A stretch of 64,000 nucleotides of DNA, from assembly GCA_036267955.1 (NCBI GenBank), contig DATAVB010000086.1, positions 817 to 64,816 of the forward strand, in the 5' to 3' direction. The stretch comes from Mycobacteriales bacterium (GTDB lineage Bacteria > Actinomycetota > Actinomycetes > Mycobacteriales > QHCD01). The position numbers and the translations under genes were made by a program. Positions within the stretch are counted from its first letter, which is position 1; every line of letters begins with the position of its first letter. The notes under the pieces are model-generated. The model did no database searches. It was not told the origin of the DNA and saw nothing but the letters and a program-made list of their open reading frames with translations. This document shows, piece by piece, positions 34,188 to 61,803 of this stretch.

Positions 34188-35218
34188 CGAAGATAACGCC
34201 GTCCCTGCTCAAGCTCATCGCGTTCGCCGCGGTAACGATCTTCGCGATGTATGTCCTCGGCACGACCATCGCCAACAACAGTTTCGGCGCCACCACGAAA
34301 TACCGCGCGGACTTCACCGATGTGACCGGCCTCAACACCGGTGACGACATCCGGATCGCAGGCGTCAAGGTCGGCAAGATCGACAGCATCAGGATCGTGC
34401 ACCGCAAGCTGGCCGAGGTGACCTTCTCGGTGACCAGGGACCGATCGCTGCCGACCAGCACGACGGCCCTGGTGCGTTACCGCGACCTGGTCGGGCACCG
34501 CTATATCGAGCTGGCGCAGGGGCCGGGGTCGGACCGGAATCTCCGCGCCGGCGGCACGATCCCGGTCCAGCAGACCCAGCCGGCCCTGGATCTCACCGTA
34601 CTGTTCAACGGGTTCAAACCGCTGTTCCAGGCGCTCTCGCCGGACGATGTCAACCGGCTCTCCTACGAGATCATCCAGGTGTTCCAGGGCGAGTCCGGCA
34701 CGGTCGACGACCTGTTGGCGCACACCGCGTCGCTGACCACAACCCTTGCCAGCAAGGACAAATTGATCGGCGAGGTGATCACCAACCTCAATTCGGTGCT
34801 CACCACGATCAACACCCGCGACCAGAAGCTGACCAACCTGATCGTGCAACTGCAGCGGCTGGTCACCGGCCTGGCGCAGGACCGCAAGGCCATCGGCGGC
34901 TCGCTGTCCGGGATCAACCAACTGGCCTCCACCACCGCCGGCCTGCTCGCGGACGGCCGACCCGCGCTGAAATCGGATATCAGCGAGCTGCGCCGGGTGG
35001 CGACGACGCTCAACGGTGCCAGCGGCACGGTGAACGGTGTGCTCCAGCGGCTACCCAACAAGCTCAACTCGCTGACCCGCACCGCCAGCTACGGATCGTG
35101 GTTCAACTTCTATCTCTGCGGTCTGCAGGCGAAGGCCGGCTACAAGGGAATCGCGATCCTGCCCGGCGGTGTGCTCTATACCCCGCAGGTCAACATCGAC
35201 CAGGCGCGTTGCCAATGA
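34184..35218 (+). CDS. mceB: Mce family protein MceB
   Basis: There is an ATGA overlap with mceA. The MCE domain sequence DDIRIAGVKVGKIDSI is present. Confidence 0.9.
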   Translation: MTKITPSLLKLIAFAAVTIFAMYVLGTTIANNSFGATTKYRADFTDVTGLNTGDDIRIAGVKVGKIDSIRIVHRKLAEVTFSVTRDRSLPTSTTALVRYRDLVGHRYIELAQGPGSDRNLRAGGTIPVQQTQPALDLTVLFNGFKPLFQALSPDDVNRLSYEIIQVFQGESGTVDDLLAHTASLTTTLASKDKLIGEVITNLNSVLTTINTRDQKLTNLIVQLQRLVTGLAQDRKAIGGSLSGINQLASTTAGLLADGRPALKSDISELRRVATTLNGASGTVNGVLQRLPNKLNSLTRTASYGSWFNFYLCGLQAKAGYKGIAILPGGVLYTPQVNIDQARCQ

Positions 35219-36375
35219 GGCCGTTCCGGGAACGTGACCCGATGACCATCGGCATTGTCGGCCTGGTGGTCATCGTCGCGTTGATCTACACCGCGTTCAA
35301 CGCGCAGAACCTGCCGGTCGTCGGGGGTGGTACGACCTACCGGGCACAGTTCAGCGAGGCCGGTGGGCTCAAGACCGAGGACGAGGTCCGGGTCGCCGGG
35401 GTGAAGGTCGGTACGGTCACCGGGGTCGATCTGGTGGCCGATCACGTCACGGTGAGCTTCCGGATCAAGGGCGCCTGGATTGGCGACAAATCAACCGCCG
35501 CGATAAGAATCAAGACCCTGCTCGGCCAGAAATATCTCGCCATCGTGCCGAGCGGTGCGCGGAAACTGTCGGCCCGTCAGGAGATCCCGCTCTCCCGGAC
35601 CACCTCGCCGTACGACGTCGTCGACGCGATCAGCCAGCTGTCGGTGGAGAGCTCGGAGATCAACACCAAACAGCTCGCGACCGCTTTGAATACGCTGTCC
35701 TCGACCTTCGCCAATACGCCGAAAGACCTGCGGCAGACCGTATCCGGGCTGTCCAAGCTGTCGAAGACCATCTCCTCCCGGGACGGCGCGCTGCGCGAAC
35801 TGCTGCGCCAGACCCGCCAGGTCAGCGGCACGCTGGCCGCCCGCAGCGGCCAGCTCACCAAGCTGATCAGTGACGGAAACCTGCTGCTGACCGAGATCAC
35901 GAAACGGCGCGTCGTCATCCACGCCCTGCTGCAGAGCACGATCACGCTCTCCAAACAGATCTCCGGCCTGGTCACCGACAACCAGAAGGATCTCAAGCCC
36001 GCGCTGACCCAGCTTTCCGGTGTGGTGAAGGTGTTGCAGAAGAACCAGACCAACCTCGACCAGAGCCTCAAGCTGCTCGGTCCGTTCGTCACCGTGTTCG
36101 CCGACACCCTCGGAAATGGGCGCTGGTTCGACACCTACCTGCAGAATCTGATCGTTCCCGGACCGGTTGACCTCGGCAGCGTCACCGGTGGGCTCTGCCC
36201 CACCTTGGGCCAGGTGACCGGCGGGCTGGACAACGTCACCAACGGGCTCGGCGGCACCGTCTCCGATCTCGGCAGCGGCCTGACCGGCAGCCTGAATTCC
36301 GTCTGCAAGGACGTGTCCGGGTCGCTGTCCGCCAGCCCGACACCGACGCCGACGAAATCCGGGGGTGGCCGATGA
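35215..36375 (+). CDS. mceC: Mce family protein MceC
   Basis: The ATG at 35215 overlaps the mceB stop. The sequence DEVRVAGVKVGTVTGV is present. The upstream 39 codons of the track ORF were rejected. Confidence 0.9.
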   Translation: MRPFRERDPMTIGIVGLVVIVALIYTAFNAQNLPVVGGGTTYRAQFSEAGGLKTEDEVRVAGVKVGTVTGVDLVADHVTVSFRIKGAWIGDKSTAAIRIKTLLGQKYLAIVPSGARKLSARQEIPLSRTTSPYDVVDAISQLSVESSEINTKQLATALNTLSSTFANTPKDLRQTVSGLSKLSKTISSRDGALRELLRQTRQVSGTLAARSGQLTKLISDGNLLLTEITKRRVVIHALLQSTITLSKQISGLVTDNQKDLKPALTQLSGVVKVLQKNQTNLDQSLKLLGPFVTVFADTLGNGRWFDTYLQNLIVPGPVDLGSVTGGLCPTLGQVTGGLDNVTNGLGGTVSDLGSGLTGSLNSVCKDVSGSLSASPTPTPTKSGGGR

Positions 36376-37637
36376 TCCTGTCCCGGATGGCGACCCGGCT
36401 GCTGTCGCTGGCGACGATCTTTGCCATCGTCCTCGGCGTGGTTTATTACTACGCCTGGCGACCCAAGCCGGTCTTCCATATTTCCGCCGACTTCACCCGT
36501 GCGGTGGGCATTTATGTCGGCTCGGACGTACGGATCCTGGGCGTCAAGGTCGGCCGGGTCGACAAGGTGACGCCGCACGGCACGTCGGTACGGGTGCAAA
36601 TGAGTGTCGCCTCCGAGCGGCAGGTGCCGGCGACGGCGCAGGCCGTCGTGGTGACGCCGTCGGTGGTGGCCGACCGATACATCCAACTGACCCCGGTCTA
36701 CACAAAGGGGGCGGTGATGCGGCCCGGCGCGCACATCGGGCTGGACCGCACCGCCGTACCGGTCGAGCTCGATCAGATCTACAAGAGCCTGGACGACCTC
36801 TCGACCGCACTCGGCCCGACCGGCGCCAACAAATCCGGGGCGTTGTCGAAGGCGCTGAAGGTCGGAGCCGCCAACCTGAAAGGGAACGGCTCGGATATCG
36901 GTCAGTCCGTGCACGACCTGTCCAAGGCCGTGCAGACTCTCAGCGGCGGCCGGTCCGATCTCTTCGGCACGGTCACCAACCTGCAGAAACTCACCTCGGC
37001 GCTGGCCGGCAGCGACGCCCAGGTGCGGACGTTCAACGGGAATCTCTCTGCGGTCGCGAGCCAGTTGGCCGGCGAGCGGACCGATCTCGGGGGCGCGCTG
37101 CACAACCTGTCGATCGCCCTGGGTCAGGTGGCGACCTTCGTCCACGACAACAAGACCGGGCTCGAGTCCAACGTGCACGGCCTCGCCCAGGTGACCAATG
37201 TGTTGGTGGCCGAGCGGGACGCGCTCGGCCGGTTCCTGGATGTCGCGCCGACCGCACTGTCCAATGTGAACGACACGTACAACGGGACCTCCGGCACGCT
37301 GGACACGCGGAACAACTTCAACCAGCTCGGCGACCCGCGGTTCGTCTGCAGTCTGCTGGACTCGTTGCCGGCGCACGACCAGTTGACGGACCTGAAGAAG
37401 ACCTGCGGCCAGCTCAGCTCGACGCTAGAGAAACTGCCGAAAGTCCCGCTGCTGAACGAGAAGCCGCCGCCACTGCCGGAGCTGCCCAAGGTGCTGCCGG
37501 ATCCGAGCCAGGTGCCGGGCGTCTCGGATCTGCCCGGCATCGCCGACAAGACGGTGCAGTCGCTCTCGGACCTCACCAACCTCAGTGGGGCGCCGCTGCT
37601 GCAGACCGTCCCGGGTCTGATCGGGGGCGGTCAATGA
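36372..37637 (+). CDS. mceD: Mce family protein MceD
   Basis: There is an ATGA overlap with mceC. The sequence SDVRILGVKVGRVDKV is present, and the C-terminus is Pro-rich. Confidence 0.9.
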   Translation: MILSRMATRLLSLATIFAIVLGVVYYYAWRPKPVFHISADFTRAVGIYVGSDVRILGVKVGRVDKVTPHGTSVRVQMSVASERQVPATAQAVVVTPSVVADRYIQLTPVYTKGAVMRPGAHIGLDRTAVPVELDQIYKSLDDLSTALGPTGANKSGALSKALKVGAANLKGNGSDIGQSVHDLSKAVQTLSGGRSDLFGTVTNLQKLTSALAGSDAQVRTFNGNLSAVASQLAGERTDLGGALHNLSIALGQVATFVHDNKTGLESNVHGLAQVTNVLVAERDALGRFLDVAPTALSNVNDTYNGTSGTLDTRNNFNQLGDPRFVCSLLDSLPAHDQLTDLKKTCGQLSSTLEKLPKVPLLNEKPPPLPELPKVLPDPSQVPGVSDLPGIADKTVQSLSDLTNLSGAPLLQTVPGLIGGGQ

Positions 37638-38842
37638 GAACCCGTCTCTGTCTGGCTCTTGCCCTGATCCTGGCCCTGGCCGGCTGCGGTTTCCACGGGT
37701 TGTATTCGGTGTCGCTGCCGGGCGGCGCCGACCTCGGCGCGAAGCCGTACCACGTGACGGTGGTTTTCGGTGACGTGCTCGACCTGGTGCCGCAGTCGTC
37801 GGTGAAGGTCAACGACGTGACGGTCGGCAAGGTCGAATCCATCAAGCTGGACGGCTGGAAGGCCAAGGTCACGCTGGCCGTCAACCGGGACGTGCACCTG
37901 CCGGCCAACAGCACCGCGCAGCTCGAGCAGACCAGCCTGCTGGGGGAGAAGTACGTCGCGCTGGTCGCGCCGCCGCGGGGCCACGGGAACCTCGCCGACG
38001 GCGACACGGTCAAGAGCAGCGGGCGCGGCGTCGAGGTTGAGGAGGTGCTCTCCGCGCTGTCGTTGTTGCTGAACGGCGGCGGAGTGACCCAGCTGCAGAC
38101 CATCAACCGCGAGTTGGGCCGGGCGTTGCAGGGTCGGGAGGGCTCACTGCGCAATCTGCTGACCCAGCTCGACCACTTCGTCGGCGGCCTGGATGCGCAG
38201 CGCTCGGAGGTGGTGCGCGCATTGACGTCGGTGAACAAACTCGCCACCACACTGGACAAACAGCGCAAGGTGCTGACCACGGCCCTGGACAAGATCCCGC
38301 CGGCGCTGAAGATCCTGGCCGATGAACGCGGCCAGCTCACCAAGATGCTGACCGCGTTGAATCGGCTCGGCACCGTCGGGGTGCAGGTCATCAACGGCAG
38401 CAAGGAGGCGACCCTGGCCGACCTGAAGGCGCTGCAGCCGACGTTGACGACCCTGGCGAATGCCGGATCCGCCCTGCCGAATTCGCTCGAGCTGTTGCTG
38501 ACGTACCCGTTCCCGGAGAACGCGCCGGACGACATCCGCGGCGACTACACAAACCTCTATGTGACGGCCGATCTGGATCTGCACGACGTGCTGCACAACC
38601 TGATCGACGGCCCCAACACCCGTACCCTGCAGGGCGGCGACGGCCCGACCACCGACCCGTCAACGGGCCCGTCGACCGCTCCGTCCAGCGGCCCGTCGAC
38701 GGCACCGACCACGACCGACCCGCCCAAGAAAAAGCAACAGCCGATCGTGCCACCGTTGCCACCTCAGGTGCCACGGCTGCCGACGATCATCGGGCTGCCG
38801 CCGGTCCTGGGCCAGATCCTGGCCGGGGTGGACGGGTCGTGA
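37634..38842 (+). CDS. mceE: Mce family lipoprotein MceE (LprN-like)
   Basis: The sequence starts MRTRLCLALALILALAGCGFHG, which contains a lipobox. The MCE domain sequence SSVKVNDVTVGKVESI is present. The ATG overlaps the mceD stop. Confidence 0.9.
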   Translation: MRTRLCLALALILALAGCGFHGLYSVSLPGGADLGAKPYHVTVVFGDVLDLVPQSSVKVNDVTVGKVESIKLDGWKAKVTLAVNRDVHLPANSTAQLEQTSLLGEKYVALVAPPRGHGNLADGDTVKSSGRGVEVEEVLSALSLLLNGGGVTQLQTINRELGRALQGREGSLRNLLTQLDHFVGGLDAQRSEVVRALTSVNKLATTLDKQRKVLTTALDKIPPALKILADERGQLTKMLTALNRLGTVGVQVINGSKEATLADLKALQPTLTTLANAGSALPNSLELLLTYPFPENAPDDIRGDYTNLYVTADLDLHDVLHNLIDGPNTRTLQGGDGPTTDPSTGPSTAPSSGPSTAPTTTDPPKKKQQPIVPPLPPQVPRLPTIIGLPPVLGQILAGVDGS

Positions 38843-40212
38843 TCACCACCAAGACCAGGTTCCAGCTGCTGCTTTTCGCGATCATTGCCGTGCTCGGAGT
38901 GTCCTATGTGGGCGTGCATTACGTCGGGTTGGGACAGAAGCTCCGGCACACCACCTACACGGTCAGCGCGGATTTCACCGACGGCGGCGGGATCTATCCG
39001 GGCGCGGACGTCACCTACAACGGGGTGCACGTCGGCAAGGTCGGGAAAATGCAGCTGCTGGCCGACGGCGTCCGGGTGCAGTTGATTATCGACAAGAGCG
39101 CGCCGCGGATCCCAGCCACAGCAGGAGCGAGCGTCAACGACCGGTCGGCGGTGGGGGAGCAGTACGTCGACCTGCGGCCGGCAAAGAATTCCTCGACCTA
39201 TCTCGCCGACGGGTCGATCATTCCGATGAATCGCAACAGCATCCCGATTTCCACGCCGCGGCTGCTGTTGAATGTCGACCAGTTGGTCAATTCCGTCGAC
39301 CGGTCGGACCTGTCGACGGTGATCGACGAGTTGGGCAAGGCCTTCGCCGGCCGTGGACAGGATCTGCAGCGGCTGATCGACGAGGGAAATCCGCTGCTGT
39401 CCGATGCGCAGAAGGCGTTGCCACAGACGTTGTCGCTGCTGGACGTGGGCAAGACGGTGCTCGACACCCAGGTCCGGTCGAAGTCCGATATCGCGAGTTT
39501 CTCCAAGAACCTCAGGTTGCTCAGCGCCCAGTTGAAATCCAGCGACCCGGACCTGCGCCGGCTGGTGCAGACCGGCCCGGCCGCCACCAATGAGGTGAAC
39601 GACCTGCTGACCGGGATACGCACCGACACCGGGGTGCTGCTGGCCAATCTGCTCACCACCAGCCAGGTCACGACGAAGCGGTTGGCCGGCGTCGAACAGA
39701 TTCTGGCGGTCTATCCGGCCGCCGTGGCCGGCGGATTCACCGTGGTCCCGGGTGACGGCACGGCGCATTTTGGATTGGCGGTCAACCTGAGCGATCCACC
39801 GGCCTGCGAGAAAGGCTACGAGAGTACGACGAAACGGGCGCCGGCCGACGGGACCGACACTCCCGCCAACACCGCGGCCGGCTGCACCGAGCCGAAGGGC
39901 AGCGGCACGGACGTCCGCGGTGCGCAGAATGCGCCGATCGTCGGCGGCCCGGAACCGGTGGCGCCGATCCCGTCCTACGCCCGGGCGCACGAGTCGCCGC
40001 AGCCCGGTGACCCGCAGGACCAGCCGGCCCCGACGAACCAGGCGCCACACCAGCCCACGGATTCGGGCTCGGCCGGCGCGTCGTCGGGCCCTACGGGCCA
40101 GCCGTCGTCGAGCCCGTCCAGCCAGGTGCCGAGTGACGAGCTGCCGATCGTGCCCGGCCTCGGTCCAGTCACCGGGATCCGCATTCCGACCATCCCCGGT
40201 CTCGGCAGCTAG
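38839..40212 (+). CDS. mceF: Mce family protein MceF
   Basis: There is a GTGA overlap with mceE. The sequence ADVTYNGVHVGKVGKM is present, and the C-terminal tail is long and Pro/Ser-rich. Confidence 0.9.
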   Translation: MITTKTRFQLLLFAIIAVLGVSYVGVHYVGLGQKLRHTTYTVSADFTDGGGIYPGADVTYNGVHVGKVGKMQLLADGVRVQLIIDKSAPRIPATAGASVNDRSAVGEQYVDLRPAKNSSTYLADGSIIPMNRNSIPISTPRLLLNVDQLVNSVDRSDLSTVIDELGKAFAGRGQDLQRLIDEGNPLLSDAQKALPQTLSLLDVGKTVLDTQVRSKSDIASFSKNLRLLSAQLKSSDPDLRRLVQTGPAATNEVNDLLTGIRTDTGVLLANLLTTSQVTTKRLAGVEQILAVYPAAVAGGFTVVPGDGTAHFGLAVNLSDPPACEKGYESTTKRAPADGTDTPANTAAGCTEPKGSGTDVRGAQNAPIVGGPEPVAPIPSYARAHESPQPGDPQDQPAPTNQAPHQPTDSGSAGASSGPTGQPSSSPSSQVPSDELPIVPGLGPVTGIRIPTIPGLGS

Positions 40213-40218
40213 CGGCAG

Positions 40219-40836
40219 TCAGGTCCGGCTGGGCGCGGCGACGAGCCGCAGGATCCGCTCCACCGTCTGCTCGGCCGGCGGCTCGGCGCCGACGTCCACA
40301 CTGGACAGACCTAGCCTTGTTAGAGCGTCGGCCATCCGTTCGTTGTAGAGCACGGCTCGGCCCAGGAACTTGTCGACCAGGCTCTGCTCGTCAGCGGTGC
40401 GCTCCCCGTACCGGCTGCCGGCATACATCCTGGCCCGCAGCAGTTCGCTCGGCGCCGTGAGCCAGAACGCGGCCACACCGGGGATCTCCAGCGTGGCGAC
40501 ATTCGGCGGCCACAGCGCCGATCCCTCCAGGACCAGCCGGCCGGCGGCCGGATCGGTCGCGTGCGCCCGGACCAGTTGCTCGATGCCCGGCCACATCCGC
40601 GTGTAGTGCTCGACGACCGCGGTGAACAGCTCGTCGACCGACAACGAACGGAAATGGTCGACGACATACGGTTTCGTGACCGGACTTCCGTCGGGCAGCC
40701 ACGGCCGGCCCGGATGGCGGGCAAGCTTGTCGGTCGAGACATAACTCCAGCCGAGCCGATCGGCCAGCCCCTGAGCCACAGTGGACTTGCCCACATTGGA
40801 CGGACCGCCGATGAGGACGACTCGCACGTCGGTCAC
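40219..40836 (-). CDS. P-loop NTPase / AAA-type small kinase-like protein
   Basis: The Walker A sequence VVLIGGPSNVGKST lies at the N-terminus. The protein is about 205 aa. Confidence 0.6.
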   Translation of the reverse strand: MTDVRVVLIGGPSNVGKSTVAQGLADRLGWSYVSTDKLARHPGRPWLPDGSPVTKPYVVDHFRSLSVDELFTAVVEHYTRMWPGIEQLVRAHATDPAAGRLVLEGSALWPPNVATLEIPGVAAFWLTAPSELLRARMYAGSRYGERTADEQSLVDKFLGRAVLYNERMADALTRLGLSSVDVGAEPPAEQTVERILRLVAAPSRT

Positions 40837-41441
40837 GGTGTGGCCAATTGCCGGAGGGCCGTCGGCGCCGCACCCTCATCGAGGCGCTGCCGGATCACGG
40901 CGGCACATTCCGCGGAGCTGAGCTTCGACGTGTCGACCTCGAGATCGTAGATTCCCGGTATGTGTACGGCGTCCTGCCACCGGTGCACCTCCGGCGGTAT
41001 CGAGCCGTCGGCCGCGTAGCTGTTCTGCCAGGTCGCGATCCGGCGTTCCATGACGACCTCGACCGGGCAGCGGACACCGACGAACAGGGCCGGCAGCGGC
41101 GCCAACCGGCGCGCGCAACGGGCCAGAATGCCGCGCGGTTGCGAATAGTTGTCGTGATGGCCGACGTCGACAACCACGTTCAGGCCGAGCCGACTCTGGG
41201 CGGCGATGGCCTCGTACAGCCCGTCATACATGGTGACGATGAGTGGCTCCAGGTCGGGACGTTCGCCGCCGGGCCGCAGCCCGATGCCCGGCTGATAGCG
41301 ATCCGGGATCGTCTCCTTGTAGCGGTCGACGCCGAGATTCAGCCACACGCCGTCGAAAATCTCCTGGATCGCGCGCGAGATACTGGATTTACCCGAGCGG
41401 GGAGTCCCGTTCAGAATCACGATCTGACCTGCCTGAGGCAT
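40833..41441 (-). CDS. Chloramphenicol 3-O-phosphotransferase (CPT)-family P-loop kinase
   Basis: The sequence QIVILNGTPRSGKSSISRAIQ ... WLNLGVDRY ... VVDVGHHD matches the pattern typical of the CPT family. The start is at MPQAGQ with RBS GGGAG. There is a 4-nt overlap with the downstream kinase gene. Confidence 0.7.
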   Translation of the reverse strand: MPQAGQIVILNGTPRSGKSSISRAIQEIFDGVWLNLGVDRYKETIPDRYQPGIGLRPGGERPDLEPLIVTMYDGLYEAIAAQSRLGLNVVVDVGHHDNYSQPRGILARCARRLAPLPALFVGVRCPVEVVMERRIATWQNSYAADGSIPPEVHRWQDAVHIPGIYDLEVDTSKLSSAECAAVIRQRLDEGAAPTALRQLATP

Positions 41442-41718
41442 GCATGTACTCCCTGGAATGTCTGGATATCGGGATGTCCTCACGGTATGGCTGTTCGCCG
41501 GGAAAAATAAGTCTTGTTCTTGGTTGCCCGATCTGATGTATTAGGCGGGGGAGGACCGGATGAGCCTCCCGGATCCCATTCCAGCGGAACCGCCATTTGT
41601 CGGCTTTGTCGCCGCGGCCGGGACATCATCGAAGAATCTTCGCCGGATTCCAACACTTCACCGGGCCGTCCGTCGTACCAAATGACTGCCCAGCAACACC
41701 CACCATGAGGTGATCGAA

Positions 41719-41918: not shown

Positions 41919-42863
41919 ATGTCCGCTGACCTCGACGGCGTCGTCCGGGATCGACAGATCCTGGACCTGACCTCGCTGCAGACCCCCGAAGACGTCGACC
42001 GCATCACCGGCCTGGAGAACATCGAGTTCGTTCTCGTTCCGGCCTCGCTGGCGGCGGCGGTCGATGGAATCCCACGGCGCAATGTCGAGCAGTACGTCGT
42101 CGTACCGGACGGCGTACGGGTCCGGAGCCAGACCGGCATGCTCCAGGTCGGTGGCGGGTCGTTCAACGGCCCGGACGCGCAGAACGAGTTTCTGGTCGTG
42201 CTGGGGGCGTTGGTGTTCACTACCCCGGTCACCGACATCAAGCTGGCCGGCATCGTGGTGATCGGTGCCGTGTACGCGCCGATCGGTAGCGAGGACGCGG
42301 TCGGTGGCGCTATCACCCAGGTGATGGGCATGGTGGGTTATTACCGTTATGCCGAGGGTCAGCAGATCAAGACGTTGAGCGGACAGCCGAAGCTGAACGG
42401 CGCCGCGCTCGCCAACAAGGCCGGCAGCCCCGACGACATCCTCATAGCGGCCGGACAATTCACCGTGACCGGGCCCGTCACCGAATTGGGATACCGGGAG
42501 TTGGTCGTACTGGGTCAGGCGATTCTGCCCCGGTCCGGCGAGGACGTGCTCGGCCCCGCGCTGCAGGTCTCCGGTCAGACGATCTGGTACGGCGGAAGCA
42601 ATCCGCGGCTGTTCATGGGTAATGAGGAGTTCGGTCGGCAATTCCTCGAGCTGATCGAGGAGCCCGCGACGTTCATTCTGTTTGGCAACGCCACTTTTGA
42701 CGCTGACGTGACGCCCGAGCTGCTGCGCGAGAAGGTCGCGGAGATCGTGTTGTTCGGAACGATCGAGGGGCCGAAGAGCATCGTTCCGGTCCTGCAGTAT
42801 CTGACCACCGAGAAGTTCGGCACCATCAACGCACTTGAGGACTCCGCCGGTGACGCGGGATGA
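41919..42863 (+). CDS. Uncharacterised protein with three internal ~53-aa repeats, coupled to the ECF sigma gene
   Basis: An AGGAG RBS is present. The repeats read NEFLVVLGALVFTTPVTDIKLAGIVVIGAVYAPIGSEDAVGG, DDILIAAGQFTVTGPVTELGYRELVVLGQAILPRSGEDVLGP and PATFILFGNATFDADVTPE..IVLFGTIEGPKS. The 3' end overlaps the sigma gene start. Confidence 0.6.
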   Translation: MSADLDGVVRDRQILDLTSLQTPEDVDRITGLENIEFVLVPASLAAAVDGIPRRNVEQYVVVPDGVRVRSQTGMLQVGGGSFNGPDAQNEFLVVLGALVFTTPVTDIKLAGIVVIGAVYAPIGSEDAVGGAITQVMGMVGYYRYAEGQQIKTLSGQPKLNGAALANKAGSPDDILIAAGQFTVTGPVTELGYRELVVLGQAILPRSGEDVLGPALQVSGQTIWYGGSNPRLFMGNEEFGRQFLELIEEPATFILFGNATFDADVTPELLREKVAEIVLFGTIEGPKSIVPVLQYLTTEKFGTINALEDSAGDAG

Positions 42864-43380
42864 CGACGCGCGGACCTTCGCGCGGATCTACGACGAACAC
42901 CGGACCGCCGTACACGCCTATTTCCTCGGCCGTACCAGCGATCCGGAGATCGCCGCGGACCTGATGCAGGAAACCTTTCTGCGGACCTGGCGCCGGCTGC
43001 CCGAGGTCGCCGATCTCGACGACGATCGGCGCCGGGCGTGGATCTTCACCGTGGCGCGCAATCTGACGATCGACACCTACCGCAGCCGGGCGACGGCGAA
43101 GGCCACCCAGGCCGCCCTGCAACGGTCCGCGCCGACCGCCGCACCGGATCACGAACAGCCCGACTCGCAGGCGGAGCTGGCTGAACACGTCGCCGCGCTG
43201 GACAAGGCGATCGCCGCGCTGCCGGACAAACTTCGTACCACCCTGACCATGCACGCGGCGGGCGGAATGAACAGTGCCCAGATCGCCAAGGCGCTGGGCG
43301 AACCGGCCGGCACGATCCGGTACCGGCTGAGCCAGGCCCGGCAGCGCCTTGCGGCGACCCTCTTGACCGTGGAGGCTTGA
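42850..43380 (+). CDS. ECF-type RNA polymerase sigma factor
   Basis: Region 2 reads DLMQETFLRTWRRLPEV...RRAWIFTVARNLTIDTYR. Region 4 reads LRTTLTMHAAGGMNSAQIAKALGEPAGTIRYRLSQARQRL. The start is GTG 42850 (RBS GAGGA) or TTG 42835. Confidence 0.85.
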   Translation: MTRDDDARTFARIYDEHRTAVHAYFLGRTSDPEIAADLMQETFLRTWRRLPEVADLDDDRRRAWIFTVARNLTIDTYRSRATAKATQAALQRSAPTAAPDHEQPDSQAELAEHVAALDKAIAALPDKLRTTLTMHAAGGMNSAQIAKALGEPAGTIRYRLSQARQRLAATLLTVEA

Positions 43381-43383
43381 GCC

Positions 43384-43593
43384 ATGCCACTCGGACTGGA
43401 TCAACTGCTGGAAGCGTGGGGCACCGCGCAGCGGCTGAGCCCGCAGCGGGCCGACCGCATCCGGGCCGAGATCATCGCGCCGCCGGCGTTACCGACGGCC
43501 TGGTGGGTCGACTTCAACGGCCGGCTGGCCGGCGCCTTCCTGCAGTCGAACGGTGTCGCGAGCATTCCGGCCACGGCCGAAGTGGCGGCCTAG
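43384..43593 (+). CDS. Small protein in the anti-sigma position (69 aa, no recognisable ZAS motif or TM)
   Basis: The ATG lies 3 nt after the sigma stop. The call rests on position only. Confidence 0.4.
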   Translation: MPLGLDQLLEAWGTAQRLSPQRADRIRAEIIAPPALPTAWWVDFNGRLAGAFLQSNGVASIPATAEVAA

Positions 43594-44312
43594 ATCCGGG
43601 CGAGTCGGGTCAGGCCGGCCAGGAACGCGGCCCGTTCGGCATCGCTGAAGTCCACATAGGGCAGTGCCGCCAGCCGATTGGTCTCCGCTTCGAGCTGTTC
43701 TGCCACCGGGCCACCGTCGAGTTGTTGTACGGCGTCCGCGCTCAACCCGGCGGCCTCCCACGCCGTCACGTGCGCATCCGCGCGGTGGTAGCGCAACGCC
43801 GTGATGCGGTCGTGCAACCCGTGCGCCGCGGAATCGGCGGTATCCGGCGGTTTCATCAGCGCGAACGCCACGCCGCCGGTGGCGGCTGCGAGGGCGCGGT
43901 CGGCCAACGGCCGCAGGTCCTCGACAACGTCGGCATGGTCGGCGAAGAGTTCCCCGACCGCCGCTCCCTGCACCTTTCGGAGGCCGACCAGCAATTCCCG
44001 CCCGGTCGGGCTCGCGGCAACGACGTCACCGGAACGGATCAGCAGACCCTGCCGCACCTGCTGATCCAGCCCGGCGGCGAATTCCCCGAATGGCGCGTAC
44101 CGCGCAATGCTGTGCAACTCGGCGGCCAGCGCGGGCCCGGCGAGCAGTGGAGTCAGCAGCGGCACCAAGAGGCCACCACGCTCCAAACCCGCCGCGTGGA
44201 ACAGTTCCACCGCGGCCGGCCGGGCGATCGGGTGCACCGCGATGGTGACCCGGTCGATCTCGGGTGCGACCGCGGCGGCGAATTCGAATGCAGTCATGCC
44301 GAATTCAGTCAT
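43590..44312 (-). CDS. Hypothetical protein (possible winged-helix region)
   Basis: This 240-aa ORF has GC3-rich codon usage. It is encoded upstream of the LysE exporter gene on the minus strand, and the two ORFs overlap at 44305-44312. I recognised no motif confidently. Confidence 0.45.
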   Translation of the reverse strand: MTEFGMTAFEFAAAVAPEIDRVTIAVHPIARPAAVELFHAAGLERGGLLVPLLTPLLAGPALAAELHSIARYAPFGEFAAGLDQQVRQGLLIRSGDVVAASPTGRELLVGLRKVQGAAVGELFADHADVVEDLRPLADRALAAATGGVAFALMKPPDTADSAAHGLHDRITALRYHRADAHVTAWEAAGLSADAVQQLDGGPVAEQLEAETNRLAALPYVDFSDAERAAFLAGLTRLARI

Positions 44313-44943
44313 GCCGGCCGGTCACCGCGAGGCTGGCTCCGAGTCCGATCATGACCAGCCCGGTGGCGCCACCAATCGCGGCCATCCGGCGCGGCGAATC
44401 GGCGATCCAGGACCGCGCGACACCGGCGATCAGACTGAACGTCGTATCGGTGGCCAAGGCGATTGCGAAATAGATCAGACCGAGCAACAGCATCTGCAGC
44501 GGCACATTGCCGGCGGCGCGATCGACGAACTGCGGCAGAATGGCGGCAAAGAATATCGCGGATTTTGGATTGGTCGCACCGACCACGAAGCCCTCACGAA
44601 ATGCGCGCCGGCTGCCGCGGAATTCCGCTCGCCCGGTCAACACCGAGGACAGCGAGCGGCGTTGCCGGATCGTACGAATTCCCAGATACACCAGATATGC
44701 GGCGCCGATCAGTTTGACCGCGGTGAAGACGACCGCGGAGCGCTCAAGCACCGTCCCGATACCGACCGCGACCGCACCGACCAGTGCGTACTCGCCCAGC
44801 GCATTGCCCAGCACAGTCGCGACCGCCCCGCGCCGGCCGTGTACGAGGGCCCGGCTCACCACGAACAGGACGCTCGGTCCCGGCGCCACGATGAGCACGG
44901 CGGCGAGCAGCACAAAAGCCAGCAGCCGATCTGGATTGACCAT
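44305..44943 (-). CDS. LysE/RhtB family amino-acid exporter
   Basis: The start MVNPDRLLAFVLLAAVLIVAPGPSVLFVVSRAL is typical of LysE-family N-termini. There are 5-6 TM helices. Confidence 0.85.
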   Translation of the reverse strand: MVNPDRLLAFVLLAAVLIVAPGPSVLFVVSRALVHGRRGAVATVLGNALGEYALVGAVAVGIGTVLERSAVVFTAVKLIGAAYLVYLGIRTIRQRRSLSSVLTGRAEFRGSRRAFREGFVVGATNPKSAIFFAAILPQFVDRAAGNVPLQMLLLGLIYFAIALATDTTFSLIAGVARSWIADSPRRMAAIGGATGLVMIGLGASLAVTGRHD

Positions 44944-45000
44944 GAAAGCGATCGTACCGGCAGGTTATGGTCGGCGGACCGGACGGCGAGAGGGAGCGGC

Positions 45001-45597
45001 GTGGTCGAGGAATGGGTCGATGCGGATTTCAGCGGCGTTGACTGGTACGGCGAGGAGCGGTCCGCCGGCCGTTATGTGCGGTGCCGCTTTCTCGGCGCCG
45101 ATCTCACCGAGACGCAGACCCGCGGGGTGGTCTTCGAGGAATGCGATTTCGGGAATGCCAAGCTGAATTCCTCGGTGCACGACGAGTCGATCTTCCTGAA
45201 TTGCCGCTTCGAGCGGACCAGCTTCTTCGACGCGACGCTGACCGCGTGCAAGGTGGCCGGCAGCGAATTCATCACCGCGCAGTTGCGGCCGCTGCGGGTC
45301 GAGGGTGGCGACTGGTCGTACGTCAGTCTGCGGTTGGCTGACCTTGCCGGCGTGACCCTGCGCGACGTCCGACTGGTGGAGGCCGATTTCACCGGCGCCA
45401 AGCTGCACGGCGCCGATCTGTCCGGCGCTGATCTGTCCCGGGCCCTGTTCGCCGAGGCCGACATCACCGGGGCCGACCTGCGCCGCGCCACTCTGGATCA
45501 TGTGGACACCGCCGGCCTCGACATCTCGGGCGTCAAGATCGGGATCGCGCAGGCCGCCGCACTGGCCCAGCACCGGGGCGCCGTCGTCGACGGCTGA
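45001..45597 (+). CDS. Pentapeptide-repeat protein (MfpA/Qnr-like)
   Basis: A GTG start follows the RBS GAGAGGGAG. There are consecutive A(D/N)LXX pentapeptides, such as ADLTETQTRGVVFEECDFGNAKLNSS and ADFTGAKLHGADLSGADLSRALFAEADITGADLRRA. Confidence 0.85.
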   Translation: MVEEWVDADFSGVDWYGEERSAGRYVRCRFLGADLTETQTRGVVFEECDFGNAKLNSSVHDESIFLNCRFERTSFFDATLTACKVAGSEFITAQLRPLRVEGGDWSYVSLRLADLAGVTLRDVRLVEADFTGAKLHGADLSGADLSRALFAEADITGADLRRATLDHVDTAGLDISGVKIGIAQAAALAQHRGAVVDG

Positions 45598-45618: not shown

Positions 45619-47148
45619 TCAGGCCGGCCCGCTCCGGGCACCCACCTGCTGGGCCAGCCCCTCGACCGCCTCCCGTGGAGTGAACGATTCGCCGGGGACA
45701 CCGGTGTGCTCCTCGGCCATCCAGAAGGGCTGCTCGAGGTAGGCCCGCACCGCCGCGGCCTCGGCGAGCACCCGACGACAGCCGGCCGCCACTTCTCGAT
45801 GCGCCGCGTCGGCGTGCTCGAGCACGGCCGAGCGGGACGCCCGCAGGTCGATCGCGGGATACCGGTGCGCGGCGAGTTCTTCCAGGCTGGTGATCGTGAC
45901 CGCGCCGGCCCCCGCCCAGTCCGGCACCGGGTCGGCCTCGGGATGATGCGGCGCCACCCGTACGCCGGTGACCGATCCACCGGCCGTCGTCACGCCGACC
46001 CGGCCGTCGAAGGTGGTCTCGCCGACCCGTTCGGCGACGACCCGGTCCACCGCCAGCAGCACCTGAGCTCCGGCCGCCGCCAGGGTCGAGGCGCACCGGG
46101 CCGCGTAGTCCAGGGCTGCCGCGGCCCGCGCGGTCGGCGCCTGCACGATCAGGGTGGCCTCCGGTCGGGCCTCGGCGTCCAACAGCCGCGGCAGCCCTGG
46201 CCACGAGTGATCGGCGGCCGACTCGGTGGCGGCCACCGCGATCAGCGCGGCCGGGCCGACGCCGATCAGGTTGTGGATGACCTCGCCGAGGATCACCAGA
46301 TGCCCGGTGCCCACCGGACCGAGGAAGTCGACGGTGCCGCCGCGCGGCCACGGTGCGACAGCGTCCAGGGCCTTGATCCCGGTGCCGAGCACGGCTCCGG
46401 GCGGCGGTGCCGACAATGCGACGCCGGCCGGGGGCGGCGGTGCCGAGGCGGGGTCGACGGTTGTGCCGAACAGCGCCATAACCCTGGTCGCTGCTGTGTC
46501 ATGAGCCGTGTTGTCGGTTGTCGCGTCGGACATGGTCTGCTCCCTGGGTCGGGTCGGTTGTCTGGGTTGGGTGGTCGTGGATGGAGGCCGATCGGTGCTG
46601 TCGGCGAGGAGCGGACGCAGCCGCCCGCGGGCGTCGTACAACCGCTTCCGGACCGCGCCCCGGCTGATGCCGAGCAGCTCGGCCAACTCGGCATCGCTCC
46701 ACTCGCCGTAGTAGCGCAGTCCCAGCAGGACCCGGTCGGCGTCCCGGGTCAGCTGCAGCGCCCGACGAACCCGGTCGACCTGGTCGCCCCGTTCGGCGGC
46801 CTGTGCCGGATCGGGTCCTCCGGAGCTGGTCGCCGGATCGACCAGAGCAGGGTCGAGGTCGATGACGAGGTCGAGCAGCATGGTCGGTCGGGTCCGCCGA
46901 CGATGCCGGTCGGCGTGCTTGCGCACCACCAGGGCCAGCCAGCGTGGATACGCCACCGGCTCGCGCAGCGTCCCGATCGACCCGAACACCTCGACCAGCG
47001 CGTCCTGCACGACGTCGTCCACGGCGTGCCGGTCATCGACCAGCCGGCCGGCGATCCTGCGGGCCGGCTCGGCGGAGGCCGCGAGCAGGCGGTCCCGGGC
47101 ACTCGGGTCCCCGCCCGCCGCCGCGGCCGCCAACTGCTCCAGCTCCAT
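45619..47148 (-). CDS. ECF sigma factor fused to a degenerate F1-ATPase beta-subunit-like domain
   Basis: Sigma region 2 reads [38 protein letters not shown]. Region 4 reads [36 protein letters not shown]. A Pro/Thr linker follows. The beta-like landmarks are [49 protein letters not shown] and [19 protein letters not shown]. The reading frame is open throughout. Confidence 0.75.
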   Translation of the reverse strand: [509 protein letters not shown]

Positions 47149-47183
47149 GTGCACCACACCAGTCAAGGCCCATTGGGCGGGCA

Positions 47184-47822
47184 ATGCGTTACGCCCTGGG
47201 CTCCGGGTCGTTGAACGCAGGCGTGGGACATCCGAGTGCAACCGACGCCGAGACCGAGAGTGGCGCCACGATCGACACAACAGCCGACACCGCCGAGGAC
47301 CAAGCTACCGAGGTCGCCGCTGACGACGGGACGCCGCGGCGGCCCCGCTTCGCGGCACTGACCTGGCTGCTGCCGGCGCTGACCGTGGTCGCTCTCCTGG
47401 TGGCCGGTGTCGTGGGCGGGCTGTACTACCGCCAGCACGGCAGGGACGCGGCCCGCAATGCGGCGGTGACCGCCGCCCGCCAGGTCCTCATCAACGCGTA
47501 CTCGGTGGACTACCGCTCGGTGACCAAGGATTACCAGCGCTTCGTCGACGGCACGTCGGGTGACCTGCACAGCCAACTGACCGACGGCAGGTCGAAGTTC
47601 ATCCAGACGGTGCAGACGACGCACACCCACGAGACCGCGCAGATCGTCGACGCCGGAGTGGTCCGTTCCGACAGCAACTCGGCCACCATCGCGATCGCGC
47701 TCAACAGCCCGCTGACCACCACCTCCATCAGCAAACCGCAGACCCGCTCCTACCGGACCGAGGTCGACGTGGCGCTGGTACACGGCACCTGGCTGGCGAC
47801 CGCGATCCGGCAGGCGGACTAG
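47184..47822 (+). CDS. Mce-associated membrane protein (Mas-like)
   Basis: An acidic N-terminus, a single TM (ALTWLLPALTVVALLVAGVVGGLYY) and an NTF2-like C-terminal domain match the usual Mas pattern. The start is uncertain (ATG 47184 or GTG 47223). Confidence 0.7.
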   Translation: MRYALGSGSLNAGVGHPSATDAETESGATIDTTADTAEDQATEVAADDGTPRRPRFAALTWLLPALTVVALLVAGVVGGLYYRQHGRDAARNAAVTAARQVLINAYSVDYRSVTKDYQRFVDGTSGDLHSQLTDGRSKFIQTVQTTHTHETAQIVDAGVVRSDSNSATIAIALNSPLTTTSISKPQTRSYRTEVDVALVHGTWLATAIRQAD

Positions 47823-47824
47823 AC

Positions 47825-48640
47825 GTGGCCACCAGAGACACGGCGGCAGAGGAGAACGAGCAGACGCCCCGGCGTCGGCCCACGCCGCGGCCGTCGGTCG
47901 CGCCTGGCGGCGGTCGGCCGCGGGTTGCCGGCCAGCGGAACCGGACCCGCCCGGCGGCCGATGAGGCGGCGGTCGGCGAGGCGCCGGTCGACGAAACTGG
48001 CGACGCAGCTGGCGACATAGCTGACGACGCAGCTGACGACATAGCCGGCGACGAAGCCGGCGACGCAGCGCGCAATGAAGCGGGCGATGCGGCGACATCG
48101 GCCGAGCGGACCCACCGGGCCATACGCCTGCCACGAATGCGGCTGCCGCGCCCGCGGTCCGGATCCCGCCGGACGTGGCTGAGCGTTTCTGCCGTACTAC
48201 TGGTCGTCTTCGCGGTGACCGCGGCAGTGCTCGGGCTGCGGCTCTACGACGGCCGGGCCAGTGACGCCAACTCGGCGGACGTGCTGCGGATCGTTCCGCG
48301 CTATGCCAGCCAGGTGCTGTCGTTCGACTATCGGCACCTCGACACCAATGCCGCCGCCGCGCGGCCGCTGCTGTCCGGCTCGTACCGCAAGGACTACGAC
48401 CAGAGCATGACCTCGCATGCGGCGGCCTGGAAGAAGTACCACTACGTGGTGAAGTCCAGCATCGCCTCGGCCGGTGTCTCGCAGGCGTCGGGTTCGCAGG
48501 TCGTGGTGGTGGCGTTCGTGGATCAGTCCGTGTCGGCCGGTACGACCAAGATCGGTACGGCCAAGGACCTGATTCGACTCCGGCTCACCCTGCAGCGCCA
48601 GCACGGCAGTTGGCTCCTCATCAAGCTCGGCTCGCTCTGA
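47825..48640 (+). CDS. Mce-associated membrane protein (Mas-like), second copy
   Basis: A disordered basic/acidic N-terminus, a TM (VSAVLLVVFAVTAAVLGLRLY) and a C-terminal domain (RIVPRYASQVLSFDYRHLD...) are present. Confidence 0.7.
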   Translation: MATRDTAAEENEQTPRRRPTPRPSVAPGGGRPRVAGQRNRTRPAADEAAVGEAPVDETGDAAGDIADDAADDIAGDEAGDAARNEAGDAATSAERTHRAIRLPRMRLPRPRSGSRRTWLSVSAVLLVVFAVTAAVLGLRLYDGRASDANSADVLRIVPRYASQVLSFDYRHLDTNAAAARPLLSGSYRKDYDQSMTSHAAAWKKYHYVVKSSIASAGVSQASGSQVVVVAFVDQSVSAGTTKIGTAKDLIRLRLTLQRQHGSWLLIKLGSL

Positions 48641-56633: not shown

Positions 56634-57224
56634 GTGTCGCACTACTTCGACGAGTCGCCGGCGTCCCGCCACCGCGAGGGTTGGGTCGAGCTGACCGTCG
56701 CGGACCGCGAGCTCCGGCTCGCCACGGACAGCGGTGTCTTCTCCGCCGGGCAGCTCGACCCGGGTACCGCCGTACTGCTGGACAGCGTGCCGCTGCCGCC
56801 TGCTTCCGGGGACCTGCTCGATCTCGGCTGCGGCTACGGTCCGATCGCCCTCACACTCGCGCTGAGGGCGCCGCACGCCACTGTGTGGGCGGTCGACGTG
56901 AACGAACGGGCCCGAGAACTCACCCAGGCCAACGCCGCCGCGGCCGGGTTGACCAACCTCAGGGTGGCGCACCCCGACGAGGTGCCGGCCGACCTGCGAT
57001 TCGCCGAGCTCTGGTCCAACCCGCCGATCCGGATCGGCAAGGCGGCGCTGCACGACCTGCTGCTGAGGTGGCTGCCCCGGGTGGACGGCGCGAGCTTCCT
57101 GGTCGTGCAGAAGCATCTCGGCTCCGACTCGCTGCAACGGTGGTTGACCGAGCAGGGCCTGCCGACGGAGAAAGTACGGTCCCGTAAGGCTTTCCGGGTT
57201 TTGTGCGCGCGTCGTCCCGGCTGA
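56634..57224 (+). CDS. Class I SAM-dependent methyltransferase (RsmC/RlmG-like MTS domain)
   Basis: The GTG start gives VSHYFDE. The sequences [30 protein letters not shown] (motif I) and WSNPPIRIG (NPPx motif) are present. Confidence 0.8.
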
Positions 57225-57933: not shown

Positions 57934-57934
<1 letters not shown>

Positions 57935-58404
57935 TGCCCCGCAAGGGTCCCGCGCCTCGGCGCCCCGTCGTCATCGATCCGGTCTACGGTTCACCGCTGG
58001 TGACCAGCCTGATCAACAAGGTTCTGCTGTCCGGCAAGCGGTCCACCGCCGAGCGGATCGTCTACGGCGCCCTGGAGGGTGCCCGCGACAAGTCCGGCAC
58101 CGACCCGGTTGTGACGCTCAAGCGCGCGCTCGACAATGTGAAGCCGACGCTGGAGGTGCGCAGCCGCCGGGTCGGTGGCGCCACCTACCAGGTGCCGGTC
58201 GAGGTCCGTCCGCAGCGCAGCACCACGCTGGCACTGCGTTGGCTGATCACCTACAGCCGGGCGCGCCGGGAGAAGACGATGACCGAGCGGCTGATGAACG
58301 AGCTGCTCGACGCGAGCAACGGCCTCGGTGCCAGCGTCAAGCGACGTGAGGACACCCACAAGATGGCCGAATCGAACAAGGCTTTCGCGCACTACCGCTG
58401 GTAG
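57934..58404 (+). CDS. rpsG: 30S ribosomal protein S7
   Basis: The sequence begins [44 protein letters not shown]. There is a TAATG overlap with rpsL. Confidence 0.97.
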
Positions 58405-60609: not shown

Positions 60610-61803
60610 GTGGCGAAGGCGAAGTTCGAGCGGAACAAGCCGCACGTCAACATCGGCACGATCGGTCACATCGACCACGGCAAGACCACGCTGACCGCGG
60701 CAATCACCCGGGTGCTTGCTGACAAGTACCCGGACGTCAACAAGGCAGCGGCGTTCGACCAGATCGACAACGCTCCCGAGGAGCGTCAGCGCGGCATCAC
60801 GATCGCCGTCTCCCACCAGGAGTACGAGACCGAGAAGCGTCACTACGCGCACGTCGACTGCCCCGGGCACGCCGACTACGTGAAGAACATGATCACCGGT
60901 GCGGCGCAGATGGACGGCGCCATCCTGGTGGTTGCCGCCACCGACGGCCCGATGCCGCAGACGCGTGAGCACGTGCTGCTCGCCCGTCAGGTCGGTGTCC
61001 CGTACATCGTCGTGGCCCTCAACAAGGCCGACATGGTCGACGATGAGGAGATCCTGGAGCTCGTTGAGCTCGAGGTTCGTGAGCTTCTCTCCAGCCAGGA
61101 GTTCCCTGGCGACGACGCTCCGGTTGTTCGTGTCTCGGCGCTGAAGGCGCTCGAGGGCGACGCCGAGTGGGGCGAGAAGATCATGGAGCTCATGAACGCC
61201 GTCGACGAGGCGATCCCGGAGCCCGAGCGCGACATCGAGAAGCCGTTCCTCATGCCCATCGAGGACGTCTTCACGATCACCGGCCGCGGCACCGTGGTGA
61301 CCGGTCGGGTCGAGCGTGGAATCGTGAACGTCAACGAGACCATCGAGATCGTCGGCATCAAGGACAAGTCGCAGACGACCACCGTCACCGGTGTCGAGAT
61401 GTTCCGCAAGCTGCTCGATCAGGGCCGCGCGGGCGACAACGTGGGGCTGCTGCTTCGTGGCACCAAGCGCGAGGACGTGGAGCGCGGGCAGGTCATCTGC
61501 AAGCCGGGCTCGATCACCCCGCACACCAAGTTCGACGGCCAGGTCTACATCCTGTCCAAGGACGAGGGCGGCCGGCACACGCCGTTCTTCAACAACTACC
61601 GGCCCCAGTTCTACTTCCGTACCACGGACGTAACTGGCGTCGTCTCGCTTGCCGAAGGCACCGAGATGGTCATGCCGGGTGACAACACCGAAATGTCGGT
61701 CGAGCTGATTCAGCCGATCGCCATGGAGGAGGGCCTGCTCTTCGCCATTCGCGAGGGCGGTCGCACGGTCGGATCCGGCCGAGTGATCAAGGTTCTGAAG
61801 TAG
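60610..61803 (+). CDS. tuf: Elongation factor Tu
   Basis: The sequences [24 protein letters not shown] and [26 protein letters not shown] are present, with RBS AGGAGG. Confidence 0.97.

Follow-up and report, generated by a model that had tools for sequence, protein, structure and literature searches.

An extracytoplasmic function sigma factor fused to a degenerate F1-ATPase beta-like domain belongs to an apparently undescribed sigma factor family

The gene of interest lies on the minus strand of a 64,000-nucleotide (nt) stretch of DNA (the whole of which we call the window) from a Mycobacteriales bacterium of the GTDB lineage QHCD01 (assembly GCA_036267955.1, contig DATAVB010000086.1, positions 817–64,816). 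It encodes a protein of 509 amino acids (aa; 45619..47148) in which a sigma factor of the extracytoplasmic function (ECF) type is joined, within a single reading frame, to a domain related to the beta subunit of F1-ATPase. Sequence profiles and structural models indicate that this C-terminal part is a trimmed, non-catalytic F1-beta paralogue, and comparison with homologues indicates that the fusion represents a conserved, apparently undescribed family of ECF sigma factors. The gene is preceded by a probable ECF-type promoter, and carries a second probable translation start at the junction of its two halves.

Positions 45619..47280 (minus strand) form one uninterrupted open reading frame (ORF), which encodes 553 aa if counted from the first TTG codon and 509 aa if counted from the ATG at 47148, where the protein begins MELEQL (stop codon, 45619–45621). 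In the family alignment, MELEQL is aligned with the N-termini of the homologues. A previous reading of this DNA, made from the letters alone (hereafter, the sequence-only reading), had described the same minus-strand ORF, and all of the peptides that it quoted are present in the translation. It had also proposed that the N-terminus is a complete ECF sigma factor and that this is followed by a linker rich in Pro, Thr and Arg, both of which are borne out here. Sigma region 2 occupies aa 1–88 (46885..47148) and contains an invariant DVVQ motif and a second invariant motif; Pfam Sigma70_r2 matches aa 29–87 above its cut-off, and in the full-length AlphaFold2 model the predicted local distance difference test score (pLDDT) of this region is 94–98 up to aa 80. 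The linker between sigma2 and sigma4 (aa 89–113; 46810..46884) starts with a partly conserved RPTxLLDL motif and is otherwise disordered; its residue L92 is nearly invariant in the family alignment, and pLDDT falls to 42–63 across aa 91–120. Sigma region 4, with its recognition helix, spans aa 114–186 (46591..46809). Here, Sigma70_r4 and Sigma70_r4_2 match aa 138–178 above their cut-offs, and residues G164, R167, K168, R169, L170, D172, R174 and R176 are invariant among family members. The Pro/Thr/Arg-rich, disordered interdomain linker (aa 187–224; 46477..46590) has pLDDT values below 50 at aa 192–205 and 210–212, is gapped in the family alignment, and varies in length among homologues. The remainder of the protein is the F1-ATPase-beta-like pseudo-ATPase domain (aa 225–505; 45634..46476), consisting of (i) a nucleotide-binding fold, and (ii) a shortened C-terminal helical part.

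Curated models assign the N-terminal half to the ECF sigma factors. The fusion protein scores 63.2 bits against the NCBIfam sigma70-ECF model TIGR02937 (cut-off 42.9), and Sigma70_r2, r4 and r4_2 are the only sigma regions that Pfam finds in it; regions 1.1 and 3 are absent, as in the ECF group (group 4) of the sigma-70 family. No anti-sigma-like gene stands beside the fusion gene at any locus examined, although a neighbouring cognate anti-sigma gene is typical, if not universal, for ECFs. A folded, conserved part of more than 50 aa follows region 4, which, combined with the lack of an anti-sigma gene, characterises ECFs with a C-terminal extension. The extension is not of the ECF41/ECF56 type (no SnoaL match; the C-terminal domain matches PF00006 and F1 beta), nor of the ECF42 type (no tetratricopeptide repeat (TPR) match in Pfam). 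Since the ShbA model NF007230 gives 33.8 bits against a cut-off of 209, the protein is not an ECF40 sigma factor by the curated-model test.

The origin of the C-terminal half was addressed by profile and structure searches, which the sequence-only reading had named as the test of its proposed F1-beta likeness. The Pfam model PF00006 (ATP-synt_ab) matches aa 257–370 with 27.3 bits, slightly below its cut-off of 29.5. A phmmer search of the PDB with the single sequence retrieves the F1 beta chain 2qe7_D at E=1e-13 in three collinear stretches, and with a profile built from 36 family members the match to F1 beta reaches E=3e-39 (138 bits); F-type beta or Mycoplasma G1 beta accounts for every one of the 57 best PDB sequences in the latter search. 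The homology to beta spans ~285 residues. AlphaFold2 models the full-length protein with a mean pLDDT of 87.2 (~95 in the C-terminal domain), and the C-terminal domain on its own with a pLDDT of 89.3 and a predicted template modelling score (pTM) of 0.86. When the model is compared with the PDB using Foldseek, F1 beta chains rank first (E 1.6e-13, probability 1.00, query-normalised template modelling score 0.5–0.65). Both approaches find the RecA-like fold shared by F1, V1 and FliI proteins across the nucleotide-binding domain, and the sequence models trace the domain to beta in particular, rather than to alpha, V-type or FliI proteins.

Collinearity with AtpD extends through the nucleotide-binding domain into part of the C-terminal domain, and several core elements have been kept. 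The Walker B Asp (D368 in LLAVDRV; 46045..46047), which aligns with LLFID of beta, is invariant in all 36 aligned members. Also retained are TGIKxxD...P..GG before the P-loop, the GSVT strand, PAxDxLxSxS, and QPFxxAE..TG. The elements that have been lost relative to beta are the N-terminal barrel, ~28 residues after Walker B, the DELSEED helix-loop and the C-terminal ~40 aa. The two deletions after Walker B and at DELSEED correspond to the helical segments that the sequence-only reading had found shortened, and the missing barrel, which it had also reported, is apparent in both Pfam and the profile alignment. The Walker A loop reads GPVGTGHL (aa 277–284; 46297..46320), such that the Lys and Thr of the GKT loop are replaced by His283 and Leu284, as had been noted from the letters. 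In the GER motif, the site of the catalytic Glu is occupied by E, Q, D, A or G among family members, and the segment after Walker B in which beta carries its phosphate-binding Arg is deleted (both residues as mapped onto bovine numbering). Because the Walker A Lys-Thr is lost and the catalytic Glu is variable, the domain cannot be an ATPase, in agreement with the non-catalytic role first suggested for it. Indeed, apart from the retained Walker B Asp, the protein lacks nearly every feature expected of a functional AtpD: the Walker A consensus GxxxxGK[TS], a conserved catalytic Glu, the phosphate-binding Arg, the barrel crown, the DELSEED lever, a complete C-terminal domain, and a place in an atp operon. 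It scores 42.6 bits against the atpD model TIGR01039, the cut-off of which is 462.85.

The fusion is not peculiar to the window. A word-indexed search yielded 41 homologues at 34–64% identity, nearly all with the same Pfam architecture; these include proteins from Kribbella orskensis, from Kribbella sp. CA-253562 (a complete genome), and from Mycobacteriales metagenome-assembled genomes (MAGs), the last being the closest. A scan of one genome per species (185,579 species) found the window-type gene at seven loci in six genomes, all of them Actinomycetota: two Mycobacteriales MAGs, three Kribbella/Kribbellaceae genomes, and one uncultured Actinomycetota MAG (one MAG copy is spread over two contigs). 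A profile search of 1.8 billion representative sequences returned 438 representatives at E<=1e-30, the best 150 of which were examined and all score at least 181 bits. The figure of 438 does not give the size of the family, since a true beta subunit can also attain such a score with this profile (138 bits in the PDB search). Among the 181 proteins collected, 165 are matched by both the sigma and the beta-like hidden Markov models, and the others are fragments. Database labels call family members either "sigma-70 family RNA polymerase sigma factor" or, wrongly, "F-type H+-transporting ATPase subunit beta".

Three architectures can be distinguished. In the direct type, to which the window protein belongs, sigma, a short linker and the beta nucleotide-binding domain follow one another (~440–510 aa; ~60 representatives), and the P-loop reads G(T)G[H/Q]L, its last two positions being HL in 35 representatives and QL in 11. 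The ankyrin type (570–780 aa; ~63 representatives) has ankyrin repeats between sigma and the nucleotide-binding domain, and a mostly degenerate P-loop; it forms a sister group (loci L014 and L015; proteins P0040, P0059, P0062, P0066 and others), some members of which are named Chloroflexota. The barrel type (490–615 aa; ~29 representatives; loci L021 and L022, proteins P0087, P0090, P0094, P0099 and others) consists of sigma, a beta-barrel (PF02874), a shrunken nucleotide-binding domain and a fuller C-terminal domain; it retains the Walker Lys in a GK[L/V/M/A] loop and has lost the Walker B stretch. The sigma-core signatures of the ankyrin and barrel types are the same as those of the direct type. 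Among all proteins with a recognisable P-loop, a single one has kept GKT.

Both halves of the gene are under purifying selection. The ratio of nonsynonymous to synonymous substitution rates (dN/dS) is 0.14–0.32 in both halves (three Kribbella pairs, and the window gene versus locus L002), and the two halves are alike in their GC content at third codon positions (GC3; sigma, 0.89; beta-like, 0.88). These values, and the recurrence of the single-ORF architecture in homologues, answer the question of frame continuity that the sequence-only reading had raised. An in-frame nonsense codon was observed inside sigma region 4 in two MAG copies (L001, positions 355–357, and L003, positions 1016–1018): a TGA at DAR*RL and a TAG at GGWP*SDL, respectively. 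The beta-like half and its upstream ribosome-binding site and ATG (see below) are intact in both, and the two copies may be either natural split versions or MAG consensus errors.

A candidate promoter lies directly upstream of the fusion gene. The sequence GTAAC-N16-GGGCCT (GTAACGCATTGCCCGCCCAATGGGCCT; 47166..47192, minus strand) has the bipartite −35/−10 layout and rigid 16–17 nt spacer expected of an ECF promoter in front of its own gene. The motif, which was first found by aligning upstream regions by eye, occurs in the form GTAAC-N16-GGG(C/T/AC)CT (in short, GTAAC-N16-GGGNCT) directly 5' of the gene at 12 of 12 loci, always with a spacer of exactly 16 nt. Two of these loci are of the ankyrin type; they differ in base composition, and the motif has been kept with the gene across distant lineages. 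It is found once per motif-bearing locus, always at the fusion gene. In the 64-kb window there is a single exact match to GTAAC-N16-GGGCCT, where 0.15 would be expected by chance, and no sigma-70-type promoter is seen in front of the fusion gene. The presence of an ECF-type promoter directly upstream of the sigma factor's own gene, at all of these loci, implies autoregulation: the fusion sigma factor probably reads this promoter, resulting in positive autoregulation. The one other site in the window, a copy with one mismatch (GCAAC-N16-GGGCCT; 57134–57160, plus strand), lies upstream of the rpsL region and is at chance level (2.06 expected, 2 found).

The promoter also bears on the start of the full-length protein. 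An in-frame GTG (47155..47157), 8 nt after the −10 hexamer, provides an alternative, leaderless start (VVHMELEQ..., 512 aa), and most direct-type loci have an in-frame ATG or GTG 7–9 nt after the −10 hexamer. This spacing suggests a leaderless message, and the full-length fusion mRNA is probably of this kind. Translation may begin at either the GTG at 47157 or the ATG at 47148.

A further start appears to be present inside the gene. In the interdomain linker, a Shine-Dalgarno (SD) sequence AGGGAG (46545–46540) is separated by a 6-nt spacer from the ATG of Met206 (46533–46531; whole element 46531..46545, minus strand), from which a beta-like protein of 304 aa would be translated. An SD-like core lies 5–9 nt before an in-frame start at the homologous position in every locus represented by DNA: AAGGAG-N6 in L001 and L018, AGGAG-N6 in L002 and L019, GGGAG-N6 in Kribbella, and GAGGAGG-N5 in L016 and L020. 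By way of background, such a motif precedes 10 of the 110 in-frame internal ATGs in the confident genes of the window. The corresponding alignment column contains Met in 23 of 35 homologues and Val in 6 of 35, and the remaining six have a Met or Val within three residues; the column lies in an otherwise unconserved, disordered linker. Gene callers have picked the internal start in five protein clusters, including one locus with an intact 456-codon ORF. Together, these patterns suggest that a free 304-aa beta-like protein is probably made beside the fusion. The two nonsense-bearing MAG copies, in which the downstream part is intact, fit this idea, or are errors.

The reading that we favour, with moderate confidence, is that the gene encodes a one-component, autoregulated ECF sigma factor, in which the pseudo-beta domain takes the place of an anti-sigma factor and is probably also supplied as a free domain from the internal start. 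Under this reading, sigma regions 2 and 4 would bind core RNA polymerase, and the sigma factor would most likely read GTAAC-N16-GGGCCT before its own gene and so activate its own expression. The pseudo-beta domain presumably regulates the sigma factor: it may keep the sigma domains inactive (or active) by fixing their conformation, and release them once a signal alters the contact. The signal could be (i) a small ligand that carries phosphate and sits in the remodelled cleft of the P-loop, or (ii) a protein partner. The free 304-aa protein could then act in trans on the fusion, like a co-expressed anti-sigma factor.

Several observations weigh against parts of this reading. The full-length model, with a pTM of 0.67, provides the sole, and weak, hint of contact between the domains. 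Where beta has its adenine-stacking Tyr, family members have Y, F, L or T, and the lack of a conserved stacking aromatic makes a single conserved nucleotide ligand doubtful; the residues that line the adenine pocket of bovine F1 are present in the window protein (Y430, F475 and A478), and are not conserved family-wide. What replaces the Walker Lys depends on the sub-family (direct type, H or Q; barrel type, K; ankyrin type, R, V, L, M or no loop at all), and the P-loop is wholly lost in two direct-type members. These two features weaken the hypothesis of the sequence-only reading that the sigma factor is gated by nucleotide or energy state, or by mimicry of F1. That the loop differs among the three types speaks against a nucleotide ligand common to all of them, while the strong conservation of the GTG[H/Q]L loop in the direct type suggests that the cleft matters there. 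As for the promoter, barrel-type loci carry no clear GTAAC-N16-GGGNCT (locus L022 has GTAAG-N16-CGTTCT), and no second copy above chance was found in the window. The internal SD-like motif, in turn, could be a relic of an ancestral two-gene state, or a translational pause site.

A bolder extension of the favoured reading, which we consider rather improbable, is that the pseudo-beta domain, tethered and free, is a new anti-sigma module that couples an ECF sigma factor to phosphate, nucleotide or energy status, or to ATP synthase assembly. If true, this would draw a direct line from bioenergetics to promoter selection, and the ankyrin and barrel types would be variations of the same principle in other phyla.

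Four other explanations have been weighed. A two-protein sigma/anti-sigma system could be housed in one ORF, with the free beta-like protein acting as the inhibitor in trans and the fusion serving to fix stoichiometry, or being a minor product. We regard this as unlikely. In its favour, an SD and start codon are conserved at the junction, in a column that alternates between Met and Val; the full-length start appears to be leaderless, and hence without an SD, while the internal start has a strong one; gene callers favour the internal start; and the two MAG copies whose region 4 is interrupted by a nonsense codon have kept an intact beta-like part with its SD-ATG. However, essentially all full-length members keep an open frame from one half to the other, a feature that would be needless in a purely trans-acting system, and no two cleanly separate genes were found among the sequences collected (those that look "beta-only" are either cut off at a contig end or called from the internal start). 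Furthermore, the barrel-type sequences examined have no conserved junction Met, and roughly half of the members of the barrel and ankyrin types are without any Met in the junction stretch. A different possibility is mimicry of, or docking to, ATP synthase, whereby the domain would bind F1 alpha, gamma or epsilon, or enter an alpha/beta ring, and the sigma factor would be sequestered at the ATP synthase and released according to its assembly or energy state. The specific derivation from beta, rather than from alpha, V-type or FliI proteins, is in keeping with this, as are the retention of the most conserved surface motifs of beta (TGIKxxD...P...GG, PAxDxLxSxS and QPFxxAE..TG), a DPxP-like "catch-loop" stretch, and the presence in barrel-type relatives of the crown domain of ring assembly. 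Yet the window type has lost the barrel, the DELSEED lever and the C-terminal tail, which are the partner-contacting parts in F1, no atp genes lie near any locus examined, and the kept motifs double as the core on which the fold is built; this explanation is, in our estimate, quite improbable.

The promoter could also be read by another sigma factor, in which case the gene would belong to another regulon and not be autoregulated. Promoters of the ECF40 factors SigD/ShbA have the consensus GTAAC(A/G)-N16-18-CGAT (PMC13537577, PMC12019637), and because GTAAC is their −35 element too, reading of the promoter by a sigma factor of this kind has to be counted as a point against autoregulation. The −35 pentamer is identical and the 16-nt spacer agrees, but the −10 element here is GGGCCT or GGGTCT rather than CGAT, and co-inheritance of the motif with the gene across distant lineages is the usual mark of ECF autoregulation; we accord this explanation a similarly low probability. 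Finally, the fusion could be an artefact or a relic, that is, two genes joined by a frameshift or mis-assembly, or the functionless remains of an atpD pseudogene. The window does come from a single 72-kb contig of an uncultured lineage, and two MAG homologues carry a nonsense codon. Nevertheless, the same single ORF is present in the isolates Kribbella orskensis and Kribbella sp. CA-253562 and in many independent metagenomes, both halves show purifying selection and uniform codon-position GC, and the structural model is confident and compact. A frameshift or assembly artefact was rejected on the grounds of recurrent architecture, dN/dS and GC3, and we give this last explanation almost no credence.

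Comparison with known systems places the fusion closest to the ECFs that are regulated by an extension (the ECF41/ECF42 class). According to two studies (PMC7826278, PMC8999054), ECFs with C-terminal extensions are typically without an anti-sigma factor, and the type of extension follows the clade of the sigma core. The present family resembles them in having a minimal sigma2–sigma4 core followed by a C-terminal domain that is folded and longer than 50 aa, in the inheritance of the extension type with the sigma-core clade, and in its stand-alone, apparently autoregulated gene with no nearby anti-sigma gene. It differs in that the extension is a P-loop fold of ~285 aa derived from F1 beta, and not a SnoaL, TPR or Cys-rich domain. 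To our knowledge, a conserved internal start at the junction has not been described for the extension-bearing ECF groups. Relative to AtpD, the fusion domain stands outside any atp operon and is joined to a sigma factor, in addition to the losses detailed above. Precedents for the same fold without turnover are F1 alpha and V1 B, which have a nucleotide- or partner-binding role inside the hexamer; F1 alpha keeps its GKT loop, whereas the window type has a degenerate loop and is without the elements that serve ring assembly.

The sequence-only reading did not recognise the architecture as a described class, and our searches concur. Neither the main text of the 2021 re-classification of ECFs nor its preprint mentions it (the supplementary group descriptions lay outside the search), and there is no description in reviews of non-canonical ECFs or in full-text literature searches, and no dedicated model in Pfam or NCBIfam. 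Extension-bearing ECFs are the "one-component systems" among sigma factors and are sought as orthogonal switches for synthetic biology, and few types of extension have been studied so far (SnoaL, TPR, Cys-rich, and fused anti-sigma). The type proposed here is large, well folded and evolutionarily old, is drawn from the catalytic subunit of ATP synthase, and is represented by at least about 150 representative clusters in three architectures. It comes with a defined candidate promoter, GTAAC-N16-GGGCCT, and thus offers a directly testable system, while the conserved internal start suggests that one reading frame may encode both sigma factor and inhibitor. The family also illustrates clearly how a paralogue of F1 beta can persist as a pseudo-enzyme outside any ATPase complex.

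The fusion gene is monocistronic in the window. A pentapeptide-repeat gene (44965–45597, plus strand) converges on it, with 21 bp between the two stop codons; on the same flank are a LysE exporter gene (44305–44943, minus strand) and an Mce-type operon with MlaD and Mce4_CUP1 domains (35098–41500, plus strand). None of these is conserved beside the homologues. Upstream and divergent are two ORFs for membrane proteins (47184–47822 and 47825–48640, plus strand), followed by rpoB. The sequence-only reading had the fusion gene adjoining rpoBC and divergent from Mas genes. The divergent orientation holds; rpoB, which starts at 49022, is ~1.9 kb away with the two ORFs in between, and Pfam and NCBIfam do not support the Mas label (no Pfam match, and a weak match to the NCBIfam model Rv0361_Cterm at E=1.3e-3). 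The sigma promoter's −35 GTAAC contains, on the other strand, the candidate ATG of the first divergent ORF (47184), and because of this overlap, divergent transcription and sigma binding could interfere with each other.

Neighbouring genes were compared by all-against-all BLAST of the ORFs of the window and six genome loci, and eight further loci were inspected. No neighbour is shared between the window, the two Mycobacteriales MAG loci, the Kribbella loci and six further metagenomic loci. A role in anti-phage defence was considered and is unsupported, with no PADLOC match. Elsewhere in the window, EF-Tu (tuf; 60610–61803) and ribosomal protein S7 (rpsG; 57934–58404) have no companion in their respective 90%-identity clusters, and the window therefore comes from a lineage that lacks close relatives among sequenced genomes. 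A second, ordinary ECF sigma gene (Sigma70_r2 and r4_2; 42835–43380, plus strand) lies 2.2 kb from the fusion gene, and is followed by one or other of two overlapping ORFs: either one on the plus strand (43377–44354) that may encode its anti-sigma factor, or one on the minus strand (43590–44312) with weak HTH_67 and SCO6745-like matches.

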